From assembly GCA_963749895.1 (NCBI GenBank), contig CAVVOG010000001.1:18068-82067 (forward strand): DNA of 64,000 nt. Direction: 5' to 3'. Origin of the DNA: an uncultured Actinomycetes bacterium. GTDB lineage: Bacteria; Actinomycetota; UBA4738; HRBIN12. The notes under the pieces are model-generated. The model saw only the letters and a list, made by a program, of their open reading frames with translations. It did no database searches and was not told where the DNA came from. This document shows positions 18,058 through 59,132 of this stretch, piece after piece. The first letter of the stretch is position 1. Each line of letters begins with the position of its first letter. The position numbers and the translations under genes were made by a program.

Positions 18058-18121
18058 ACGGATCCCTCCTGGGTGGATGACGCGTCCACCCTACCGGGCG
18101 CGCCACGCGTCCCCAGGATGT

Positions 18122-48583: not shown

Positions 48584-50182
48584 TCAGCGTTCGTCAGGGT
48601 TCTCCCGAGGGTGGACGAGGCCGAACGCGTACGCGTCGACGAGCGCCTCCCACGATGCCTCGATGATGTTCTCGCTCACGCCGACGGTGGTCCACTCGGA
48701 CTCGCCGTTCGAGGTGTCGATCAAGACCCGGACCACGGCCCCGGTACCGACGCTCTGGTCGAGCACGCGGACGCGGTAGTCCTCCAGCGACATGTGCCCG
48801 AGCTCCGGATAGTCATTCGTGAGCGCCTTGCGGAGCGCGTTGTCGAGCGCACCAACGGGCCCCTGCCCCTCCGCCGACTCGATGTGACGCGTGCCCTTGG
48901 TCCGGACCTTCACGGTCGCCTCAGCGAGCGGGCCCTCCTCGTCGCCGACCCGCTCCTCCACGTGCACGCGGTAGCTCTCGATGTCGAAGAACGGCTGCTG
49001 CCACCCCGCGGCGCGTCGCAACAGCAGCTCGAGCGAAGCCTCGGCGACGTCGAACGCATAGCCGGCGGCCTCACGGTCCTTGATCTGGGCGACCGCGGTC
49101 GGGATCGCGTCGTCGGGCATGTCGTAGCCGAACTCGGCCGCCTTCATCCGGATCGTGGCCGCACCGCCGTAGTCCGACGCCACCACCCCGCGACGGTTCC
49201 CGACCGTATCCGGCGCGACGTGCTCGTAGGCCCGGGTCAGCCGCGCGACACCGCTGGTGTGCAGCCCCGCCTTGTGGGTGAACGCGTGGCGTCCGGCGTA
49301 CGGCTGGTGCGCGTCGGGCGCCAGGTTCGCGACCTCCGCCACGTAGTGCGCGAGTTCGGTCAGGTGCTCCACGCTCCCGCCCGGGAGCGCGTCGTCGACC
49401 CCCATCTTCAGCACGAGATCGGCGGTGATCGGGATCAGGTCGGCGTTGCCGGTGCGCTCCCCGTAGCCGTTCACGGTTCCCTGCACCTGATACACGCCCG
49501 CGTCGACCGCGATCAGCGAGTTCGCCACGGCGCAGCCCGCGTCGTTGTGGACGTGGATCCCGAGCGCGACCGCCGTCTGCGCCTTGACCTCATGGACGAT
49601 CCGGGCCACGTCGAACGGGAGCATCCCCCCGTTGGTGTCGCACAGGACCAGGCGCTCCGCGCCCGCCTCCTCGGCCGCCTCGAGCACCCGCATCGCGAAC
49701 CCCGGGTTCGCGACGTACCCGTCGAAGAAATGCTCGGCGTCGAAGAAGACTCGCCGACCCTCGCGCCGGAGGAACGCGATCGAGTCTCGGACCATCTCGA
49801 CGCCCTCCTCGATCCCGGTCCGCAGCGCCTCGGTCACGTGCAGGTCCCACGACTTGCCCACCAAGCACACGACCTCGGTCCCCGTGTCGAGGAGACCGCG
49901 CAGGACCTGGGAATCCTCGGCTCGCTCCCCCGCCTTGCGCGTCATCCCGAACGACGTCAGCTGCGCGTGCTTCAGGGTCTCCTTCGTCGCGACCTTGAAG
50001 AACTCGGTGTCGCGCGGGTTCGCACCCGGCCAGCCGCCCTCGACGTAGGGGAAGCCCACCTGGTCGAGCTTGTGAAGGATGCGCAGGCGATCTTCGATCG
50101 TGTAGCTGAGGTCCGCACGCTGTGCGCCGTCACGCAGGGTCGTGTCGTACAGCTCGACGGAGGGTGTCGTCGCCTCGCTCAC
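48584..50182 (-). CDS. cimA: (R)-citramalate synthase-like enzyme of the LeuA family
   Basis: LYDTTLRDGAQ and the YVEGGWPGANPRD motif typical of CimA-type synthases. The GTG start overlaps the leuB stop (GTGA). The N-terminal 128 codons of ORF 48584..50566 belong to leuB in another frame. Confidence 0.85.
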   Translation of the reverse strand: MSEATTPSVELYDTTLRDGAQRADLSYTIEDRLRILHKLDQVGFPYVEGGWPGANPRDTEFFKVATKETLKHAQLTSFGMTRKAGERAEDSQVLRGLLDTGTEVVCLVGKSWDLHVTEALRTGIEEGVEMVRDSIAFLRREGRRVFFDAEHFFDGYVANPGFAMRVLEAAEEAGAERLVLCDTNGGMLPFDVARIVHEVKAQTAVALGIHVHNDAGCAVANSLIAVDAGVYQVQGTVNGYGERTGNADLIPITADLVLKMGVDDALPGGSVEHLTELAHYVAEVANLAPDAHQPYAGRHAFTHKAGLHTSGVARLTRAYEHVAPDTVGNRRGVVASDYGGAATIRMKAAEFGYDMPDDAIPTAVAQIKDREAAGYAFDVAEASLELLLRRAAGWQQPFFDIESYRVHVEERVGDEEGPLAEATVKVRTKGTRHIESAEGQGPVGALDNALRKALTNDYPELGHMSLEDYRVRVLDQSVGTGAVVRVLIDTSNGESEWTTVGVSENIIEASWEALVDAYAFGLVHPRENPDER

Positions 50183-51240
50183 GGGGCCGACCCCTCCACG
50201 ACCAGATCGCCGACCTCGGTCGTCGTGAAGCCCATCTGCGCCGGCGCGCATGCTCGACATCTGCGAGGTCGCGCTGCGGATCCCCCGGTCGACGTCGTCG
50301 GCCGCCTCGTCCTCGCCGAGCTGCCGCAGCAGCATCTCGAGGGCGCCGATCGCCGCGAGCGGATTGATCGTGCCCTTGCCGGTCTCACTGGGCGCGGTGC
50401 CACCGATCGGCTCGAACATCGAGACGCCGTGCGGGCTGATGTTGCCCCCGGCGGCGATCCCCATGCCGCCCTGGATCATCGCTCCGAGGTCCGTGATGAT
50501 GTCGCCGAACATGTTGTCGGTGACGATCACGTCGAACCGGCCGGCGAGTCCAGGAAGTAGATGCACGCTGCGTCGACGTGGACGTAGTCGGTCTCGACGT
50601 CCGGGTACTCGAGGCCGACCGCGTCGACGACCCGCTGATAGAGGTCCCCGGCGAACGTCAGCACGTTCGTCTTGTGGACGAGCGTGACCTTCTTCCGGCG
50701 GCCGGGCCGCATCGCCAGATCGAAGGCGTAGCGGACGATCCGCTCGACCCCGTGGCGCGTGTTGACCGACTCCTGCACCGCGACCTCGTGCGGCGTGCCC
50801 TTGCGGTGGAACCCGCCGGCCCCGCTGTACAGGCCCTCCGAGTTCTCACGCACGACGATCATGTTCACGTCGTCCTCGGTATGGCTCGGTACCAGCGTCT
50901 CGACGCCCGGGTAGCGCACGACCGGTCGCAGGTTGACGTACTGGTCCAGCTCGAACCGGATCCGCAGCAGGAGGTCTCGTTCCAGGATCCCCGGCTTCAC
51001 CCGAGGATCACCGACCGCCCCGAGGTAGATCGCGTCCATCGAACGGAGCCGCTCGAGCTCGTCGTCGGGAAGGACCTCACCGGTGCGGAGGTACCGGTCG
51101 GCGCCCAGGTCGAAGTCCACGAGCGTCACCCCGAAGCCGTGACGCTCCCGTACCGCCTCGAGGACCTTGAGCCCCTCGCCGATCACCTCCGGTCCGGTGC
51201 CGTCGCCGGCGATCACCCCGATCGTGTGGGTCCGGGTCAC
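50179..51240 (-). pseudogene. leuB: 3-isopropylmalate dehydrogenase gene split over three frames (two compensating frameshifts); either a pseudogene or assembly indels
   Basis: The N-terminal 237 aa (ORF 50527..51240) end at a stop after [14 protein letters not shown]. The middle segment [13 protein letters not shown]...GTINPLAAI continues in a second frame (ORF ..50566). The C-terminus ..[13 protein letters not shown] returns to the first frame (ORF 50179..50403). Confidence 0.8.
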
Positions 51241-52784
51241 GGGGTGACCTCGTTCGACTGCGCGGCGTCCTTCGCCTGGACCTGGAGGGCGCGGTTGATC
51301 GCGGCCAGGTAGGCGCGGGCGCTCGCCTCGACGACGTCGGTGGCGACCCCGCGGCCGGTGACGCGCCGGCCGTCGACGTCGAGCTGGACGACGACGTCGC
51401 CGAGCGCGTCGGACCCGCCGGTGACCGAGGAGACGTTGAAGCTCACGAGACGCGCCTCGATCCCCGACGCGCGCGCGATCGCACCCATCGCGGCGTCGAT
51501 CAACCCATCGCCGATCGCCGACTCCTCGACCGTCTCGTCACCCTTCTTCAGGTGAACCGTGGCGCGCGGCTGGAGATGGGTACCGCCCCCGACGACCACC
51601 GATTCGAGCACGAAGAGGTCCTCCTCGGCCGATCCGAGCTCCTCGGCCACGATCGCGGCCAGGTCCTGGTCGGTCAGGCTGATCTTGCGGTCCGCGAGAT
51701 CCTTGAACCGCGCGAACGCGCGGTTCAAGGGCGCCTCGTCCAGGGTGATCCCCAGCTTGTCCAGCGCGTCGACGAACGCATGGCGGCCACTGTGCTTGCC
51801 CAGGACCAGACGGTTGCCCTCCAGCCCGATCTCGAGGGGATCCATGATCTCGTAGGTCTCGCGGTTCGCGAGCACACCGTGCTGGTGGATCCCGCTCTCG
51901 TGCGCGAACGCGCTGGACCCGACCACGGCCTTGTTCGGCTGGACGCCGTACCCGGTGGTCATGCTCACCAGCCGAGAGGTCCGGGTGATCTCCTTGATGT
52001 TCAGCCCGTGGGTCACGCCTAGGTGCTCCCGACGGGTCCGCACGATCATCGCGATCTCCTCGAGCGAGCAGTTGCCCGCCCGCTCGCCGATCCCGTTGAC
52101 CGCGACCTCGACCTGACGCGCGCCGTTCTCGATCCCGGCGAGCGCGTTCGCGACGGCGAGCCCCAGGTCGTTGTGGCAGTGGGTCGAGATCACGACCTCG
52201 TCCGGGAGGTCGTCGCGGACGATCCGGATCAGTTCGCCGAACTCGCTCGGCGTGGCGTACCCGACCGTGTCGGGAACGTTGATCGTCGTCGCCCCGCAGC
52301 GCACCGCGAGGCGATAGCACTCGAGCAGGAAGTCGAGCTCGGTGCGGGTCGCGTCCTGCGCCGAGAACTCGACGTCGTCGGTGTAGGTCTTCGCGAGCTT
52401 CACGTTGTCCTCGATCGCCTGCAGGACCTGCTGGTTCGACATCTTGAGCATCGCGCCCATCTGGATGTCGCTCGTCGAGATGAACGTGTGGATCCGCCAG
52501 CGCTCCGCGCCCTTGAGGGCCTCGGCCGCGCGCTCGATGTCGCCGGTCGCGGTGCGGGCGAGCGCGGCGATCACCGGCCCCTTCATCGAGTCGGCGATCT
52601 CGCGGACGGCCTCGAACTCACCCTGCGACGAGATCGGGAACCCGGCCTCGAGGATGTCCACCTGCAGCCGCGCGAGCTGCTCGGCGATCTCCACCTTCTC
52701 GGGGCGGGTGAGCGCGATCCCGGGGGCCTGCTCCCCGTCGCGAAGGGTCGTGTCGAAGATCCGGACTACGTCAGCGTCGGTCAT
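51237..52784 (-). CDS. leuA: 2-isopropylmalate synthase (short bacterial type)
   Basis: [11 protein letters not shown], HxH metal site and a LeuA dimerisation/regulatory C-terminal domain. RBS GGAAGG. The ATG overlaps the ilvC stop (ATGA). Confidence 0.9.
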
Positions 52785-53841: not shown

Positions 53842-54372
53842 TCAGCCGATCGCGCTCTTCAGGACGCGTTCGCGGATCCCGCGATCGCCACGCGCCAGGG
53901 CGATGCGACCCGTCCGCGAGAGCTCCACGATCCCGAAGTCCTCGACCAGCTCGAGCAGCGCCTGGAGCTTGTCCGGCTTGCCGGTCGCCTCCAAGGTGAG
54001 CGTCGCGTGCGTCACGTCGACGATGTTCACCCGGAACACCTCGGCGATCTCCATCACGCGGGCCCGGGCATCGCCGGAGGCACGCACCTTCACCAACATC
54101 AGCTCGCGCTCGACGGCCGAGCCCGGCTCGTGCTCGAGGATCTTGATGATGTTGATCAGCTTGTTCAGCTGCTTCGTGACCTGCTCCAACGGCTTCATCT
54201 CGACGTTGACGACGATCGTCATCCGTGAGACGCCGGGGGTCTCGGTGGCCCCCACCGCGAGCGAGTCGATGTTGAACCCGCGGGCCGCGAACAGCCCCGC
54301 CACGCGGGTCAACACACCGGGCTTGTCCTCGACGAGTACCGAGATCGTGTGCAGCGCATCGCCGTTCGTCAT
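53842..54372 (-). CDS. ilvN: acetolactate synthase small (regulatory) subunit
   Basis: ACT domain [33 protein letters not shown]; the ATG overlaps the ilvB stop (ATGA). Confidence 0.9.
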
Positions 54373-56117
54373 GCGATCGGAGCCTCCGAAGGGTCGGTGG
54401 TGGGCTGGACCTGCTCGGGCCCGAGGATGATGTCGTCGTTCGAGGCGCCGGAGGGCACCATCGGGAACACCATCTCGCCGGGGTCGACGCGGAAGTCGAT
54501 CACCACGCTCCGATCGGTGATCGCGTACGCCTTCTCGATCGCCGCATCGACCTCGTCGGGACTCTCCACCCGAAGCCCGACCGCGCCGTAGGCTTCGGCC
54601 AACTTCACGTAGTCGGGCACGTTGGGGTCGAGCCACACGCCCGAGTAGCGCTCGTCGAAGAACAGCTCCTGCCACTGGCGGACCATCCCGAGGTACCCGT
54701 TGTTCAAGATCGCCGTGACGAACGGGATGTCCTCGGTCCGGCTGGTCGCGAGCTCCTGCGCCGTCATCTGGAAGCAGCCGTCGCCGTCGATCGCGACCAC
54801 ACGCTTCTTCGGCTGGCCGACCTTCGCGCCCATCGCCGCCGGGACCGCGAAGCCCATCGTGCCGAGACCGCCGGAGTTGATCCAGTGCCGGGGCCGCTCG
54901 AACCGCCAGTACTGCGAGGCGTACATCTGGTGCTGCCCGACGCCGCTGACGAGGATCGTGTCGGCGTCCGCCAGGGCGTGCAGCCGCTCGACGCAGTGCT
55001 GTGGCTTCAGCAGCCCGTTCGAGGTGTCGTACCGGTAGGGGTACGTCTCCTGCCACTCCTTCAGCTGGGCGAGCCACGCAGATCGGTCGGGGACCCCACC
55101 CGCCTCGTCCTGGCGCTTCACGAGCTCGGCGGCGAGCTTGCCGATCACGTCCTTGCAGTCGCCGACGATCGGCACGTCGACCACGCGGTTCTTGCCGATC
55201 TCGGCCGGATCGATGTCGACGTGCACGACCTTCGCATGCGGAGCGAACCCGGCCAGCTTGCCGGTGACACGGTCGTCGAAGCGCGCGCCCAGCGCGACCA
55301 GCAGGTCAGCCTTCTGCATCGCGGTGACGGCCGTGTAGTTCCCGTGCATCCCGGGCATACCCAGGCAGAGCTCGTGGGAGTCGGGGAACGCGCCGCGCGC
55401 CATCAGCGTCGTGACGACCGGGAGCTTCCCCGTCGTGGCGAGCTGGAACAGCTCCTTATGGGCGTCAGCCTTGATCACGCCGCCGCCGACGTACAGCACC
55501 GGCCGCTTGGCCTTGAGGATCATCTTCACGGCCTCGCCGATCTGACGGGCGTTGCCCTTCGTCGTGGGCTTGTAGCCGGGCAGCGAGACCCGATCCGGCC
55601 ACTTGTAGTTCACGTCGGCGATCAACACGTCCTTCGGCAGGTCAATCACGACCGGACCGGGGCGGCCGGTGCTGGCGATGTGGAACGCCTCGCGGACCGT
55701 CTCGACGATCTGCGCGGGGTCCTTCACCAGGAAGTTGTGCTTCGTGACGGGCATCGTGATGCCGGTTACGTCGGCCTCCTGGAACGCGTCGTTGCCCACG
55801 ACCGGGGTCGGGACCTGGCCGGTGATCGCGACGATCGGGACGGAGTCCATCTTCGCGTCGGCGAGGGGGGTGACGAGGTTCGTCGCCCCGGGCCCGGACG
55901 TGGCCATGCACACGCCGACCTTGCCGGTCGCCCACGAGTAGCCCTCGGCGGCGTGCCCGGCGCCTTGCTCGTGGCGGCACAGGATGTGGCGGATCGGGCT
56001 CTTGTCGACGAGCGGGTCGTAGATCGGCATGCTCGCCCCGCCCGGGATGCCGAAGATGACCTCGACCCCCTCCTGCTCGAGGGCCTTCAGCAGCGCCTCC
56101 GCGCCGGTCATCTTCAT
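54369..56117 (-). CDS. ilvB: acetolactate synthase large (catalytic) subunit
   Basis: ThDP enzyme. [27 protein letters not shown] start with AGGAGGTG upstream; GDG...NN ThDP motif. The upstream 137 codons of ORF 54369..56528 are discarded. Confidence 0.9.
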
Positions 56118-56437
56118 CCCGCCGCCACCTCCTCGGGACGGTCCTCGACGGGACCGGTCTCGACCCGCCGGACCTGCGCCTGCAGGCGGTGCGCCAGGTT
56201 GCGGCACGCCCGCTCGAACTCCCAGGGGGTCCAATCCCGGCGCCGGGTCTGCAGGACGTCGGGTTCGGTCTCCTCGGAGAACCCGAACCCACCGCCCAGG
56301 TAGGTCACCTCGGAGGCGAGGTAGCGGTCGACGACGGCGCGCGTGGACGGGTCGGCGGCCTCGACGGTCACCTGCGCGGGCCCCTCCCACAGCACGCTCG
56401 CGACCACGGTTCCGTCTCGCTCGAACTCGTACCGCAT
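56114..56437 (-). CDS. small hypothetical protein (107 aa) between the attenuator and ilvB; its stop overlaps the ilvB start (ATGA)
   Basis: Strong RBS GGAAGGAG 6 nt before the ATG at 56437; [19 protein letters not shown]...; no recognisable domain. Confidence 0.5.
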
Positions 56438-56499
56438 GGTGCGCTCCTTCCGTGGCCGGCTCCCGTGGACCCGGCGGTGCTCCGACGATCGGCGGGTAG

Positions 56500-56541
56500 A
56501 AAAAACCCCCCGCGGCGGCGAGGGGCATCTGGCGCGGGGGG
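56500..56541 (-). terminator. intrinsic terminator/attenuator hairpin (CCCCCCGCG-N18-CGCGGGGGG followed by a T6 run on the minus strand) in the ilvB leader
   Basis: Read directly from the sequence (coordinates +/-1). It lies between the leader peptide ORF and the first structural genes. Confidence 0.6.
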
Positions 56542-56568
56542 TCATCGGGCCTCTCGGCCCGCCCGCGC

Positions 56569-56622
56569 CTAGGCGATAAGTACCAGGGTGCTGCGACCCG
56601 TGATCACGGTGCTCGTATGCAT
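56569..56622 (-). CDS. candidate ilv-leu attenuator leader peptide [17 protein letters not shown] (17 aa, rich in Val/Ile/Leu/Thr)
   Basis: Short ORF ending about 25 nt upstream of the terminator hairpin. The same reading frame appears as the tail of the spurious ORF 56569..57609. Confidence 0.5.
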
Positions 56623-56697
56623 GTCCGTCGGACAGTGTGGGCGCGCGGTGCGGAGCGTGTCAACCTCGGCGGCCCAAGGCTCACGTAGCATCACGGG

Positions 56698-57525
56698 ATG
56701 TTCACGAACCACGTACTCGACGCCGGCGGGGTGCGCTGCCGCGTCCTGGTGGACGGGTGGCGCGCCGTATCGCCTCGGTTCGTGTTCCGCGGGTACGACG
56801 AGGACGTCCACGGGCCGCTCGTGCGCCCCGGGATGGACGCGGACGGACTCCTGCCCGGCCGTTTCGCGGCGCTGCTGATCGAGAGCCCGGACGGGCTGGT
56901 CCTGGTGGATGCGGGCATGGGGCCGTTCGCGGGCGAGATGGAGGCCGGCCGGCTCACGGGGGAGCTCGACGCGCTCGGCATCTCCCGGACCGACATCGGG
57001 ACCGTCGTCGTCACCCACGGACACGCCGACCACGTCGGGGGGCTCGTCACGAACGACGGCGTCCCCGCCTTCTACGAGGCACGACACCTCGTCCACCCCG
57101 CCGAGCTGGCCTTCTGGCGCTCTCCGGCGGCCCGGGAGCTGCCGGGCGACGCGGGCGAGCCCGCCCGGGTCGCCTTCGGTGCCCTGCGCGCCGGCGGCCT
57201 CCTGGACGAGGCGACCGGCGGAGCGCCGGTCGCCTCGGGCGTCCGGATCCTCGAGGCCCCCGGGCACACCCCCGGCCACCTCGCCGTCGTGGTCAACGAC
57301 GCGCTGCTGTGGGCCGGCGACGCGATCGTCCACCCGGTCAACGTGCCGCATCCCGAGTGGGTGAGCGCCGCCGACATGGACGCTCGCAACGCCCAGACCC
57401 GCGTGGAGCTGCTCGAACGCGCCGCCGACGACCGGCTCATGCTGGCGGGAAGTCATCTGCCCGTCGAGGGCACGGTCCGCCGCGAGGCGGCCGGATTCGC
57501 GTTCGACATCGCGTCGCCCGGTTGA
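56698..57525 (+). CDS. MBL-fold metallo-hydrolase (lactonase-like), paralogue of the gene at 27489..28352
   Basis: THGHADHVGG motif and the ...APGHTPGH... ligands. It is divergent from the ilv leader. Confidence 0.8.
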   Translation: MFTNHVLDAGGVRCRVLVDGWRAVSPRFVFRGYDEDVHGPLVRPGMDADGLLPGRFAALLIESPDGLVLVDAGMGPFAGEMEAGRLTGELDALGISRTDIGTVVVTHGHADHVGGLVTNDGVPAFYEARHLVHPAELAFWRSPAARELPGDAGEPARVAFGALRAGGLLDEATGGAPVASGVRILEAPGHTPGHLAVVVNDALLWAGDAIVHPVNVPHPEWVSAADMDARNAQTRVELLERAADDRLMLAGSHLPVEGTVRREAAGFAFDIASPG

Positions 57526-57572
57526 CCCGGGTGACCACCCCGAAGCCGGTCCGGCTAGCATGGGGGTACCCG

Positions 57573-59132
57573 ATGCAGGCTTCCATGCCAACGGCGTTCG
57601 AGTCTCCACTCGTCGTCGTCTCGAACCGAGGCCCCGTGTCCTTCAGCCGCGATGAGGGCGGGGCCCTGATCGGCGAGCGTGGGTCCGGCGGCCTCGTCAC
57701 CGCCCTGGCCGGCGTGCTGTTCGAGTCCGATGCCACGTGGCTCGCCGCGGCGATGACGGATGCCGACCGCGAGGTCGCCGCGACCGGCCGGCCGATCGAC
57801 GTCGAGCCCGCCGGACGGGCGTCGTTCGTCGACATCGACCCGGTCCGCTACGAGGGCTACTACAACGGCATCGCGAACCGGGTGCTCTGGCTGATGCACC
57901 ACTACCTGTTCGATCTGGCCTATCTGCCGGCGTGGGACACCGAGACCCGACTGATCTGGAACGACTACCGCGAGGTGAACGCGACCTTCGCGAAGGCCCT
58001 CGACGCCGAACGCGACCGCGACCCCGTCTACCTGGTGCAGGACTACCAGCTGAGCCTGGTCCCTCAGATGCTCCGGGACATGCAACCGAACGCCCGGATC
58101 ACGCACTTCACGCACACTCCCTTCGCCGGCCCGACGTACCTGCGGCTGCTGCCGGCGGGGATGCGCGAGGAACTGCTCCGCGGGCTGCTCGGCGCCGACA
58201 TCCTGGGGTTCCAGGCCGATCGCTGGGCCGAGAACTTCCTGCTGGCCGTCCGCGACACCCTGCACGACGCCCACGTGGACGTGCGACGGCGGCGGATCGA
58301 CATCGACGGCCGGCGGGTGCTGGTGCGCGGCTACCCGATCGCGCTGGACCCCGTGCCGCTGCGCCGCACGTCCACCTCCCGCGAGGTCAAGGAGCTGCGC
58401 CGCGAGTTGGGGGCGTGGCGCGGCGACGCGAAGCTCTTGCTCCGGGTCGACCGGCTGGAGCTGTCGAAGAACATCGTGCGCGGCTTCCACGCGTACGACA
58501 CCTTCCTCACCGAGCACCCGGAATGGCGCGGGAAGGTGCGGTTCCTGTCGATCCTGCCGCGCTCACGCACCGAGATCCCCGAGTACGTGTCGTACGCGGA
58601 GCGGACCCTGGAGACGGCCGCCGAGATCAACGCGCGGCACGGAGGCCAGGACTGGACCCCGCTCGAGGTGAGGACCGAGGAGGACTACATCGGGGCGGTG
58701 GCCGCCTACGGTCTGTACGACACGCTCCTGGTGAACCCGATCTTCGACGGGATGAACCTCGTCGCGATGGAAGGGCCGCTGGTGAACAAGCGCCACGGGA
58801 CCCTGGCGCTGTCGGTGAACGCGGGCGCGTACGGCCGGCTCGGCCGCCACGCGATCGCCCTCAACCCGTTCGACGTCGTCGAGACCGCCGAGGCGATCCA
58901 CCTCGGCCTGACGATGCCGGAGGACGAGCGGACCCGCCGGGCCCGAGGGCTGATGCGCTCGGTCCTCGCCAGCAGCCCGACCCGATGGCTCACGGCGCAG
59001 CTGCGAGATCTCGACGCGGTCCGCGGGGTCGTCGCACGTCCTCGTCCCAAGCCGTTCGCGGAGGAGCCGTTCGACGGCGAGCCGGCGGTGCCCGACGAGC
59101 TGAACGGCGGGCTCCACAGGCCCGAGGGCTGA
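57573..59132 (+). CDS. otsA: alpha,alpha-trehalose-phosphate synthase (GT20)
   Basis: LVVVSNRGP start region and GT20 motifs (LWLMHHYLF, VQDYQLSLVPQMLR, HFTHTPFAG); the upstream part of ORF 56637..59132 is discarded. Confidence 0.85.
   Translation: MQASMPTAFESPLVVVSNRGPVSFSRDEGGALIGERGSGGLVTALAGVLFESDATWLAAAMTDADREVAATGRPIDVEPAGRASFVDIDPVRYEGYYNGIANRVLWLMHHYLFDLAYLPAWDTETRLIWNDYREVNATFAKALDAERDRDPVYLVQDYQLSLVPQMLRDMQPNARITHFTHTPFAGPTYLRLLPAGMREELLRGLLGADILGFQADRWAENFLLAVRDTLHDAHVDVRRRRIDIDGRRVLVRGYPIALDPVPLRRTSTSREVKELRRELGAWRGDAKLLLRVDRLELSKNIVRGFHAYDTFLTEHPEWRGKVRFLSILPRSRTEIPEYVSYAERTLETAAEINARHGGQDWTPLEVRTEEDYIGAVAAYGLYDTLLVNPIFDGMNLVAMEGPLVNKRHGTLALSVNAGAYGRLGRHAIALNPFDVVETAEAIHLGLTMPEDERTRRARGLMRSVLASSPTRWLTAQLRDLDAVRGVVARPRPKPFAEEPFDGEPAVPDELNGGLHRPEG

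Follow-up and report, generated by a model that had tools for sequence, protein, structure and literature searches.

The stretch studied here is a 64-kb window (64,000 nucleotides; positions 18,068 to 82,067 of contig CAVVOG010000001.1, from an uncultured actinobacterium), whose minus strand carries a branched-chain amino acid (BCAA) operon in which a small open reading frame (ORF) of 107 amino acids, the sORF, is followed by ilvB, ilvN, ilvC, leuA, leuB and cimA. Ahead of these genes lies a leader with a short upstream ORF (uORF), two closely spaced hairpins and a run of T, which an interpretation made earlier from the letters of the stretch (hereafter the sequence-only reading) had described as a classic attenuator. 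Comparison with other loci makes it very likely that the leader is a transcription attenuator of the actinobacterial ilvL/ilvB type, worked by a ribosome on a leader peptide and controlling the whole sORF-ilvB-ilvN-ilvC-leuA-leuB-cimA series. Its features are listed below in window coordinates, with the stem proposed in the sequence-only reading at the end.

56658-56663, minus strand: predicted -35 hexamer, TTGACA
56634-56639, minus strand: predicted -10 hexamer, CACACT
56569-56622, minus strand: leader uORF of 17 codons plus TAG
56575-56586, minus strand: sensor codons CTG GTA CTT ATC (Leu-Val-Leu-Ile), codons 13-16 of 17
56531-56569, minus strand: hairpin A, GGCGCGGG (56569-56562) paired with CCCGCGCC (56538-56531), inner stem CGGGCC/GGCCCG, -29.3 kcal/mol
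56527-56530, minus strand: spacer AGAT (4 nt) between hairpin A and the terminator
56505-56526, minus strand: terminator hairpin B, GCCCCTCGC (56526-56518), loop CGCC and GCGGGGGGT (56513-56505), -16.8 kcal/mol
56500-56505, minus strand: U-tract T6
56494-56499, minus strand: conserved CTACCC tail just past the U-tract
56506-56541, minus strand: stem of the sequence-only reading, CCCCCCGCG (56541-56533) with CGCGGGGGG (56514-56506), 18-nt loop, -18.3 to -20.1 kcal/mol

For comparison, 80 other ilvB loci were taken from GTDB genomes, all of them metagenome-assembled genomes (MAGs) and nearly all labelled Actinomycetota, Actinomycetes or Acidimicrobiia. A close set of 28 loci was formed by the window and the 27 loci that carry the 107-aa ORF directly ahead of ilvB, and in 28/28 of them a promoter, a uORF, an LVLI-x-TAG ending, hairpin A, a spacer and hairpin B with a run of T were found. 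A covariance model (R1) built from these 28 sequences matched exactly once in the window and, in 70 of the 80 further loci, ahead of ilvB (71/81 sources with the window included). The loci matched include some of Acidimicrobiia type without the 107-aa ORF, whose leaders read, for example, MKSASLLVVVTIE or MHLILVLH. In the resulting alignment of 71 sequences, which was fitted to the R1 model and hence favours its structure somewhat, 98.5% of cells were paired, versus 36-64% in slid controls, and compensatory changes were present in 16/16 modelled pairs. A column-pair scan, unbiased over all pairs, recovered helices A and B only.

The uORF was located exactly as the sequence-only reading had given it, with its ATG at 56622, its TAG at 56571-56569 and 10 of 17 residues being Val, Ile, Leu or Thr. 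The predicted -35 hexamer occupies the same relative position in 28/28 close loci (as TTGACA or TTGACG), the -10 hexamer takes the forms TACACT, CACACT or TAGACT in the family, and an in-frame ATG directly past the promoter was found in all 28. Whereas the close loci follow the layout TTGACA, 16-18 nt, (T/C)AnnnT, about 9 nt and ATG, with a gap of 9 nt from -10 to ATG in most relatives, the window has 18 nt between the -35 and the -10 and 11 nt between the -10 and the ATG. Transcription in the window would thus begin a few nucleotides before the ATG, from a sigma-70-like promoter. No Shine-Dalgarno sequence was detected ahead of the uORF ATG and the gap leaves no space for one, so the uORF is probably leaderless or nearly so. 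A generic promoter scan under a stricter rule did not pick up the leader promoter. The uORF measures 16-20 codons in the close loci, with a variable N-terminal part and an invariant C-terminal LVLI-x-stop. The window contains 121 ATG-started ORFs of 8-30 codons, of which three include four consecutive Ile, Leu or Val codons; only this one is then followed within 120 nt by a run of at least five T.

Conservation within the uORF is confined to the LVLI run. The general richness in Val, Ile, Leu and Thr, which the sequence-only reading took as the signal, is not what has been kept, as neither the Thr residues nor the V6-I7-T8 segment is conserved. GTA and CTT are invariant in the 28 close loci, and the changes seen across LVLI are synonymous only (CTC/CTG, ATC/ATT); CTC GTA CTT occurs in 26/28 and CTG GTA CTT in the window. 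Both invariant codons are rare in the genes of this genome, where 1.1% of Val codons are GTA and 2.2% of Leu codons are CTT. Nearly all members of the 71-sequence alignment have CUCGUA, and more distant loci have runs of Ile, Leu and Val that adjoin the stop codon. The comparison therefore identifies LVLI, with its rare GUA and CUU, as the likely true sensor. GUA and hairpin A lie 14 nt apart in 46/70 sequences and mostly 8, 11 or 17 nt apart in the others, and the stop codon is UAG in 65/70; the stop codon of four sampled genes of this genome was TGA in 4/4 and never TAG. The column-pair scan gave no conserved pairing partner for the LVLI region, which in the folds is unpaired or paired only inside the variable coding part.

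At the core of the sensor run, CUCGUACUU (56578-56583) is conserved at the nucleotide level in L001-L080 and in the Streptomyces-type loci L081-L120 described below, although other rare synonymous codons exist. The same rare GUA (Val) and CUU (Leu) are thus found in the sensor run of Streptomyces and of these MAGs, which are distant lineages, suggesting either that strong selection has kept the codons since a very old common ancestor or that the sequence itself has a role beyond slow decoding.

The two hairpins that follow the sensor differ in how they vary. Hairpin A was seen in the folds of the window and in the consensus structure, with compensatory changes across 70 sequences. In the window and the other close loci, the G of TAG is where its 5' arm starts; in 62/70 sequences pairing sets in at the third base of the stop codon. 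This fixed register between the stop codon and the base of the hairpin argues that hairpin A serves to report the position of the ribosome. In 29 close loci the inner stem of A and the terminator covary while the lower stem of A stays fixed, and the loops and inner stem of A differ in length and sequence across the family. The spacer between A and B is 4 nt long in 51/71 family members (range 1-6; 3-5 nt in close loci). Hairpin B has stem arms GCCCCUCGC and GCGGGGGGU around CGCC that run straight into the U-tract. It was present in minimum free energy (MFE) folds, was the sole terminator-like site detected by a terminator scan of 56000-57000, and showed compensatory changes in 6/6 modelled pairs, with 99% of cells paired. 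The run of T is weak in three close loci.

Some further observations concern this region. The lower stem of hairpin A (GGCGCGG/CCGCGCC; 56562-56569 and 56531-56538) is invariant in the 29 close loci, and more distant lineages have other hairpin A sequences (GCGCACGG, AGCGCG). The T6 at 56500-56505 is the only one on either strand of the 64-kb window, and no T5 or T6 occurs outside the attenuator; given this lack of other runs, canonical U-tract terminators are apparently very rare in this genome. Past the U-tract, YACCC shortly 3' of the run of T is conserved in the close loci, and a C-rich tail motif (CUACCC, UUUCCCG or GUUGCCCG; alignment columns 137-141; family consensus YCCC(G), 8-10 nt beyond the stem) is kept family-wide, L081-L120 included. 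Pairing of the YCCC tail with the 3' arm of the terminator was considered and rejected, as it was no better than in shuffled or slid controls.

The conserved terminator is not the one initially proposed. The sequence-only reading had placed two 9-nt G/C arms, CCCCCCGCG and CGCGGGGGG, and the T6 at 56505-56500 correctly, and the first of these arms lies 27 nt from the stop codon. However, the arms are unpaired with each other in the MFE structure, in which the conserved stem joins 56526-56518 with 56513-56505 instead, and the 9-bp stem is present only in the window and its closest relative, L027. The 5' arm of this stem is shared with the 3' arm of hairpin A, and the stem becomes the preferred fold only once the 5' arm of A has been masked, as a ribosome standing on Ile16, on codon 17 or on the stop codon would do.

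To model the effect of ribosome position, each homolog was folded with the covered bases masked, the mask reaching as far as 12 nt past the first A-site base; the ribosome was set on each sensor codon and on the stop codon in turn, first in 9 homologs and later in 70. With GUA in the A site, hairpin A was intact (P>0.8 in 59/70), whereas with the stop codon in the A site it was melted in 70/70. In this model, hairpin A is the only structure that reports where the ribosome stands. Hairpins A and B share no nucleotides. In just two of the 70, the window and L027, masking exchanges hairpin B for a long-range stem that likewise adjoins the U-tract. Several pairings drawn by eye were tried and rejected as not conserved: that between the 5' arms of A and the terminator, that between their 3' arms, that between the LVLI region and the terminator's 3' arm, and an extension of hairpin A into the spacer.

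Joined together, these data would fit the following course of events. Transcription would start from the sigma-70-like promoter a few nucleotides before the ATG, and a ribosome would translate the 17-codon uORF, in which Leu-Val-Leu-Ile, with the slow, rare GUA and CUU, would report the supply of charged BCAA-tRNA. When supply is good, the ribosome would reach UAG and, since the G of UAG is the first base of hairpin A, melt the 5' arm of A, and the polymerase would terminate at B and U6. When supply is poor, the ribosome would halt at LVLI, short of hairpin A, which would stay folded and lead to read-through. The assignment of read-through to an intact hairpin A follows the analogy with Mycobacterium tuberculosis ilvB1; physiological logic and the result obtained in that species both require that an intact A give read-through and a melted A give termination. 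Ribosome-stalling control in front of the operon, as claimed in the sequence-only reading, is well supported by comparison: the promoter, the uORF, LVLI, the stop-abutting hairpin and the terminator are all conserved, CUC-GUA-CUU is used as in Streptomyces ilvL, and the LVVI run of M. tuberculosis provides a precedent (PMC13236596). The designation "classic" is not supported, since the architecture of this probable leader-peptide attenuator of a BCAA operon is not the classical one of three overlapping stems.

Several points weigh against this interpretation. The stem abutting the U-tract stays paired (at least 0.95) without a ribosome, with a ribosome on GUA and with a ribosome on the stop codon in 70/70 homologs, and no antiterminator that would exclude the terminator was predicted at any ribosome position in these 70 homologs. 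The sequence-only reading had proposed RNA folding as a check for alternative antiterminator and terminator structures, and this check yielded no terminator-excluding structure in any ribosome state. As A and B share no bases and no alternative pairing is conserved, base-pair competition fails, in this model, to account for the step by which A would suppress B. Substitutions of candidate regulatory codons in Streptomyces coelicolor were reportedly without effect on ilvB regulation (summarised in PMC1262725). The R1 scores on Streptomyces loci are individually weak (14-20 bits). Finally, the assembly contains indels in the operon (see below), so the lengths of the C6, G6 and T6 runs in the attenuator are uncertain.

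One tentative way in which hairpin A could act on B is by geometry: the folded A, beside a ribosome stalled at LVLI and 0-6 nt from the 5' arm of B, might keep hairpin B from being completed within the polymerase's RNA exit channel. The block might come about by steric exclusion among ribosome, hairpin A and polymerase or by occupation of the exit channel; steric exclusion is our preferred guess, as the base of A adjoins the stalled ribosome, the base of B is 0-6 nt away and B must form deep inside that channel. Once at the stop codon, a ribosome would melt hairpin A, free about 40 nt of slack and permit termination. Alternatively, hairpin A could act as a pause or exit-channel hairpin, or by binding a factor. 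If true, geometry-based antitermination between non-overlapping hairpins would be conserved across Actinomycetota, Streptomyces included, and could account for the old "paradoxical" S. coelicolor data.

Among other explanations, the one that survives best, though unlikely, is a classic three-segment attenuator in which CCCGCGCC pairs with GGCGCGGG when the ribosome stalls and with CGCGGGGGG (9-10 bp, 18-nt loop, followed by U6) when it reaches the stop codon. Masking the 5' arm of A does shift the window and L027 to this long-range stem, whose energy is -18 to -20 kcal/mol, and the two structures share a strand, as the classical model demands. Nevertheless, the local hairpin GCCCCUCGC/GCGGGGGGU is compatible with A and has P of about 0.98 on stalling, so that termination is still predicted; the long-range stem is unavailable in 68/70 homologs (L004, for example) and hinges on the lengths of C6 and G6 runs in an indel-prone assembly, and the stem that covaries is the local one.

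Somewhat less probable still is that a trans-acting factor, either a protein or the RNA polymerase itself, reads hairpin A, with the uORF merely loading or unloading the structure. The invariance of GGCGCGG/CCGCGCC in the 29 close loci, where inner stem and terminator covary, would suit such a reader, as would the failure to find an antiterminator made of RNA only and the S. coelicolor codon substitutions reported to be without effect (quoted in PMC1262725). However, hairpin A varies in sequence from lineage to lineage (GCGCACGG, AGCGCG) and covaries as it does so, which speaks against recognition by a sequence-specific binder, and the rare codons, the synonymous-only variation and the fixed register between stop codon and hairpin point to a ribosome as the sensor. 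The loss of induction on changing LVVI to AAAA in M. tuberculosis also favours codon sensing (PMC13236596).

It is very improbable that an RNA binding a metabolite or a tRNA, such as a T-box or a riboswitch for ppGpp or another ligand, is at work in place of a leader peptide. Although ilvB is riboswitch-controlled in some Firmicutes (PMC10272879) and the element has two conserved hairpins, Rfam yielded no match at gathering score in the whole window and only three chance-level matches (E 1.1-3.6) in 54000-58000 at E<=10; the variable loops and inner stem of hairpin A leave no conserved pocket, and the pattern of conservation is codon-phased. A chance ORF beside an ordinary terminator, for which the many open frames of high-GC DNA and the unremarkable fold z-score of the whole leader (-0.49 over 193 nt) might speak, has next to no likelihood and is already refuted by the comparative data, since the upstream gene is divergent and the terminator therefore ends no gene, the element is kept upstream of ilvB in 71/81 sources and recognizable at 40 Streptomyces-type ilvL sites, and its combination of features is unique in the window.

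The attenuator interpretation was also examined against characterized systems. Leader peptides with terminators upstream of ilvB have been described in Corynebacterium, Mycobacterium and Streptomyces (PMC1262725), and the IlvL peptide of Streptomyces lividans, MRTRILVLGKRVG, is reported to be leaderless in its transcription (PMC8079986). To obtain Streptomyces-type loci, the IlvL peptide was back-translated with third codon positions left free and metagenomes were scanned, yielding 40 loci (L081-L120). L-V-L is encoded by CTC-GTA-CTT in 40/40 and Ile by ATT in 39, and R1 matched at the ilvL site in 40/40, with the low scores given above. In the 11 loci that were read and folded, a hairpin A (AGCGCG...CGCGCU) begins 10 nt past GUA and includes the stop codon, and a CCCCUCG...CGAGGGG-U6 terminator directly adjoins it; no 107-aa ORF was found in these 11 between the terminator and the next start codon. 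The window thus resembles Streptomyces ilvL in its short uORF directly after the promoter, its four consecutive BCAA codons with CUC-GUA-CUU as the family form of L-V-L, and its GC-rich hairpin A, which would be melted by a ribosome moving past the sensor codons, with an adjacent terminator. The two differ in detail: Streptomyces has the order I-L-V-L and five more codons, a UGA inside hairpin A and a spacer of 0 nt, whereas the window has L-V-L-I and one more codon, a UAG at the base of hairpin A and a spacer of 4 nt. As the Streptomyces-type loci share layout, codons and R1 matches, the window element is best regarded as a member of the already known pan-actinobacterial ilvL attenuator family and not as a novelty. 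By sequence comparison of 110 loci, one ilvL architecture appears to be common to genomes from Streptomyces through Acidimicrobiia-like lineages, in which CUC-GUA stands in the sensor run, the stop codon falls at or within the 5' arm of hairpin A, and the terminator lies next to A as a distinct hairpin.

In M. tuberculosis, the ilvB1 uORF encodes LVVI, with GUA highlighted, and changing LVVI to AAAA abolishes induction (PMC13236596, 2026); the terminated leader transcript is about 120 nt long and the U-tract ends at +126 (PMC13236596). In the window, the U-tract ends 123 nt after the ATG. The four BCAA sensor codons including GUA and the intrinsic terminator of ilvB1NC are likewise matched, and the logic proposed is alike, in that the upstream hairpin is masked, and termination permitted, when the ribosome has reached the stop codon, but stays folded when the ribosome stalls on the sensor codons. 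The antiterminator and terminator of M. tuberculosis were, however, described as mutually exclusive, whereas in the window and 68/70 relatives the two hairpins share no nucleotides, and the stop codon is UGA in that species and UAG in the window.

For Corynebacterium, an ilvB-II motif and a three-hairpin model of ilvBNC have been published (PMC10272879, PMC11857589). A uORF rich in Ile, Leu and Val (probably near-leaderless in the window) and two hairpins upstream of ilvB, the second being the intrinsic terminator, are common to both systems. In the ilvB-II motif the P1 loop region pairs with the right shoulder of P2a (PMC10272879), whereas the family studied here has no conserved pairing between the 3' half of A and the terminator's 3' arm. 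The Corynebacterium uORF spans most of P1, and an antiterminator overlapping the lower stem of the terminator was proposed and mutated; in the window, by contrast, the uORF reaches only to the base of hairpin A, and the family has kept no overlapping alternative.

Enterobacterial attenuators (trp, leu, ilvGMEDA) are comparable in function, with a leader peptide that senses charged tRNA, rare sensor codons (such as CUA in the leu leader of Escherichia coli) and termination at a hairpin with a U-tract. Unlike in their 1:2/2:3/3:4 scheme, the sensor codons of the window do not lie in a segment 1 that pairs with a segment 2, the candidate antiterminator shares no strand with the conserved terminator, and the uORF lacks a Shine-Dalgarno sequence. 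In E. coli pyrBI and pyrE, a ribosome close behind the polymerase blocks the terminator hairpin. These operons offer a functional analogy for the steric model only, in that termination is regulated without an antiterminator hairpin and the position of the ribosome decides. There, however, it is polymerase speed that gives the signal, and the translated frame reaches or enters the terminator, whereas the uORF of the window ends 42 nt ahead of the terminator stem, a gap that the folded hairpin would have to bridge.

For annotation, these results would place the BCAA operon of a widespread, uncultured soil lineage of actinobacteria under leader-peptide control; they also re-assign the terminator stem and show that an unannotated, conserved 107-aa gene opens the operon. 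The question of how read-through is achieved also bears on a system lately shown to be relevant to drug vulnerability in M. tuberculosis (PMC13236596). The genes and signals around the attenuator are as follows.

56698-57525, plus strand: divergent MBL-fold hydrolase gene, the 5' neighbour of the attenuator
56451-56444, minus strand: strong ribosome-binding site (RBS) GGAAGGAG, preceding the 107-aa ORF
56437-56114, minus strand: conserved 107-aa ORF, the first gene past the attenuator
54369-56117, minus strand: ilvB, acetolactate synthase large subunit (by family assignment and frame plot)

The window as a whole has a G+C content of 71%. The sequence-only reading had placed the first structural gene of an ilvBNC-leuAB-cimA operon after the T-tract, but the next gene is the 107-aa ORF, which starts 62 nt beyond the T-tract and whose TGA overlaps the ilvB ATG at 56117 (ATGA), so that it appears to be translationally coupled to ilvB. 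Its third-position G+C in frame (GC3) is 0.90-1.00, marking it as coding, and 519 homologs of the same size were found in metagenomes, which fall into just 45 clusters at 50% identity (among 1.8 billion representatives). No match was obtained in Pfam, NCBIfam or PDB sequences, and the ORF is, from these comparisons, probably a real gene, an uncharacterised orphan. The idea that it represents a frameshifted N-terminal extension of ilvB was rejected on the basis of the GC3 frame signal, the strong RBS, the ATGA overlap and the 519 homologs of equal length.

Further along, ilvN, ilvC, leuA, leuB and cimA follow ilvB (family assignments), and the pairs ilvB/ilvN, ilvC/leuA and leuA/leuB are joined by overlapping start and stop codons (ATGA or GTGA). 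Single-base indels shift the frame in ilvC at about 53569 and in leuB at about 50545 and again near 50250, and as a result the 3' part of leuB enters cimA in frame with no stop codon. An extra base is present in the window at GACGTCGATGATG in comparison with L002 and L027. The indels in ilvC and leuB look like assembly errors, possibly from long reads, rather than signs of pseudogenes. In L027 (CAVOYV010000002.1, 90-7164), the closest relative, the DNA is 85% identical over 7.1 kb and the ilvB translation just 69% identical to that of the window; the aligned stretch (end of ilvN, start of ilvC) contains several single-base indels and an in-frame TAG. Replacement of the ilvB gene in L027 was considered and set aside, the 85% DNA identity throughout and the indels making an assembly artefact probable.

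Within the operon (48584-52780, minus strand), leuA (2-isopropylmalate synthase) stands together with cimA (citramalate synthase; TIGR00977, 638 bits) and leuB. Their presence together suggests that threonine-independent synthesis of isoleucine is placed under the same attenuator, which fits with the non-conserved Thr codons of the leader.

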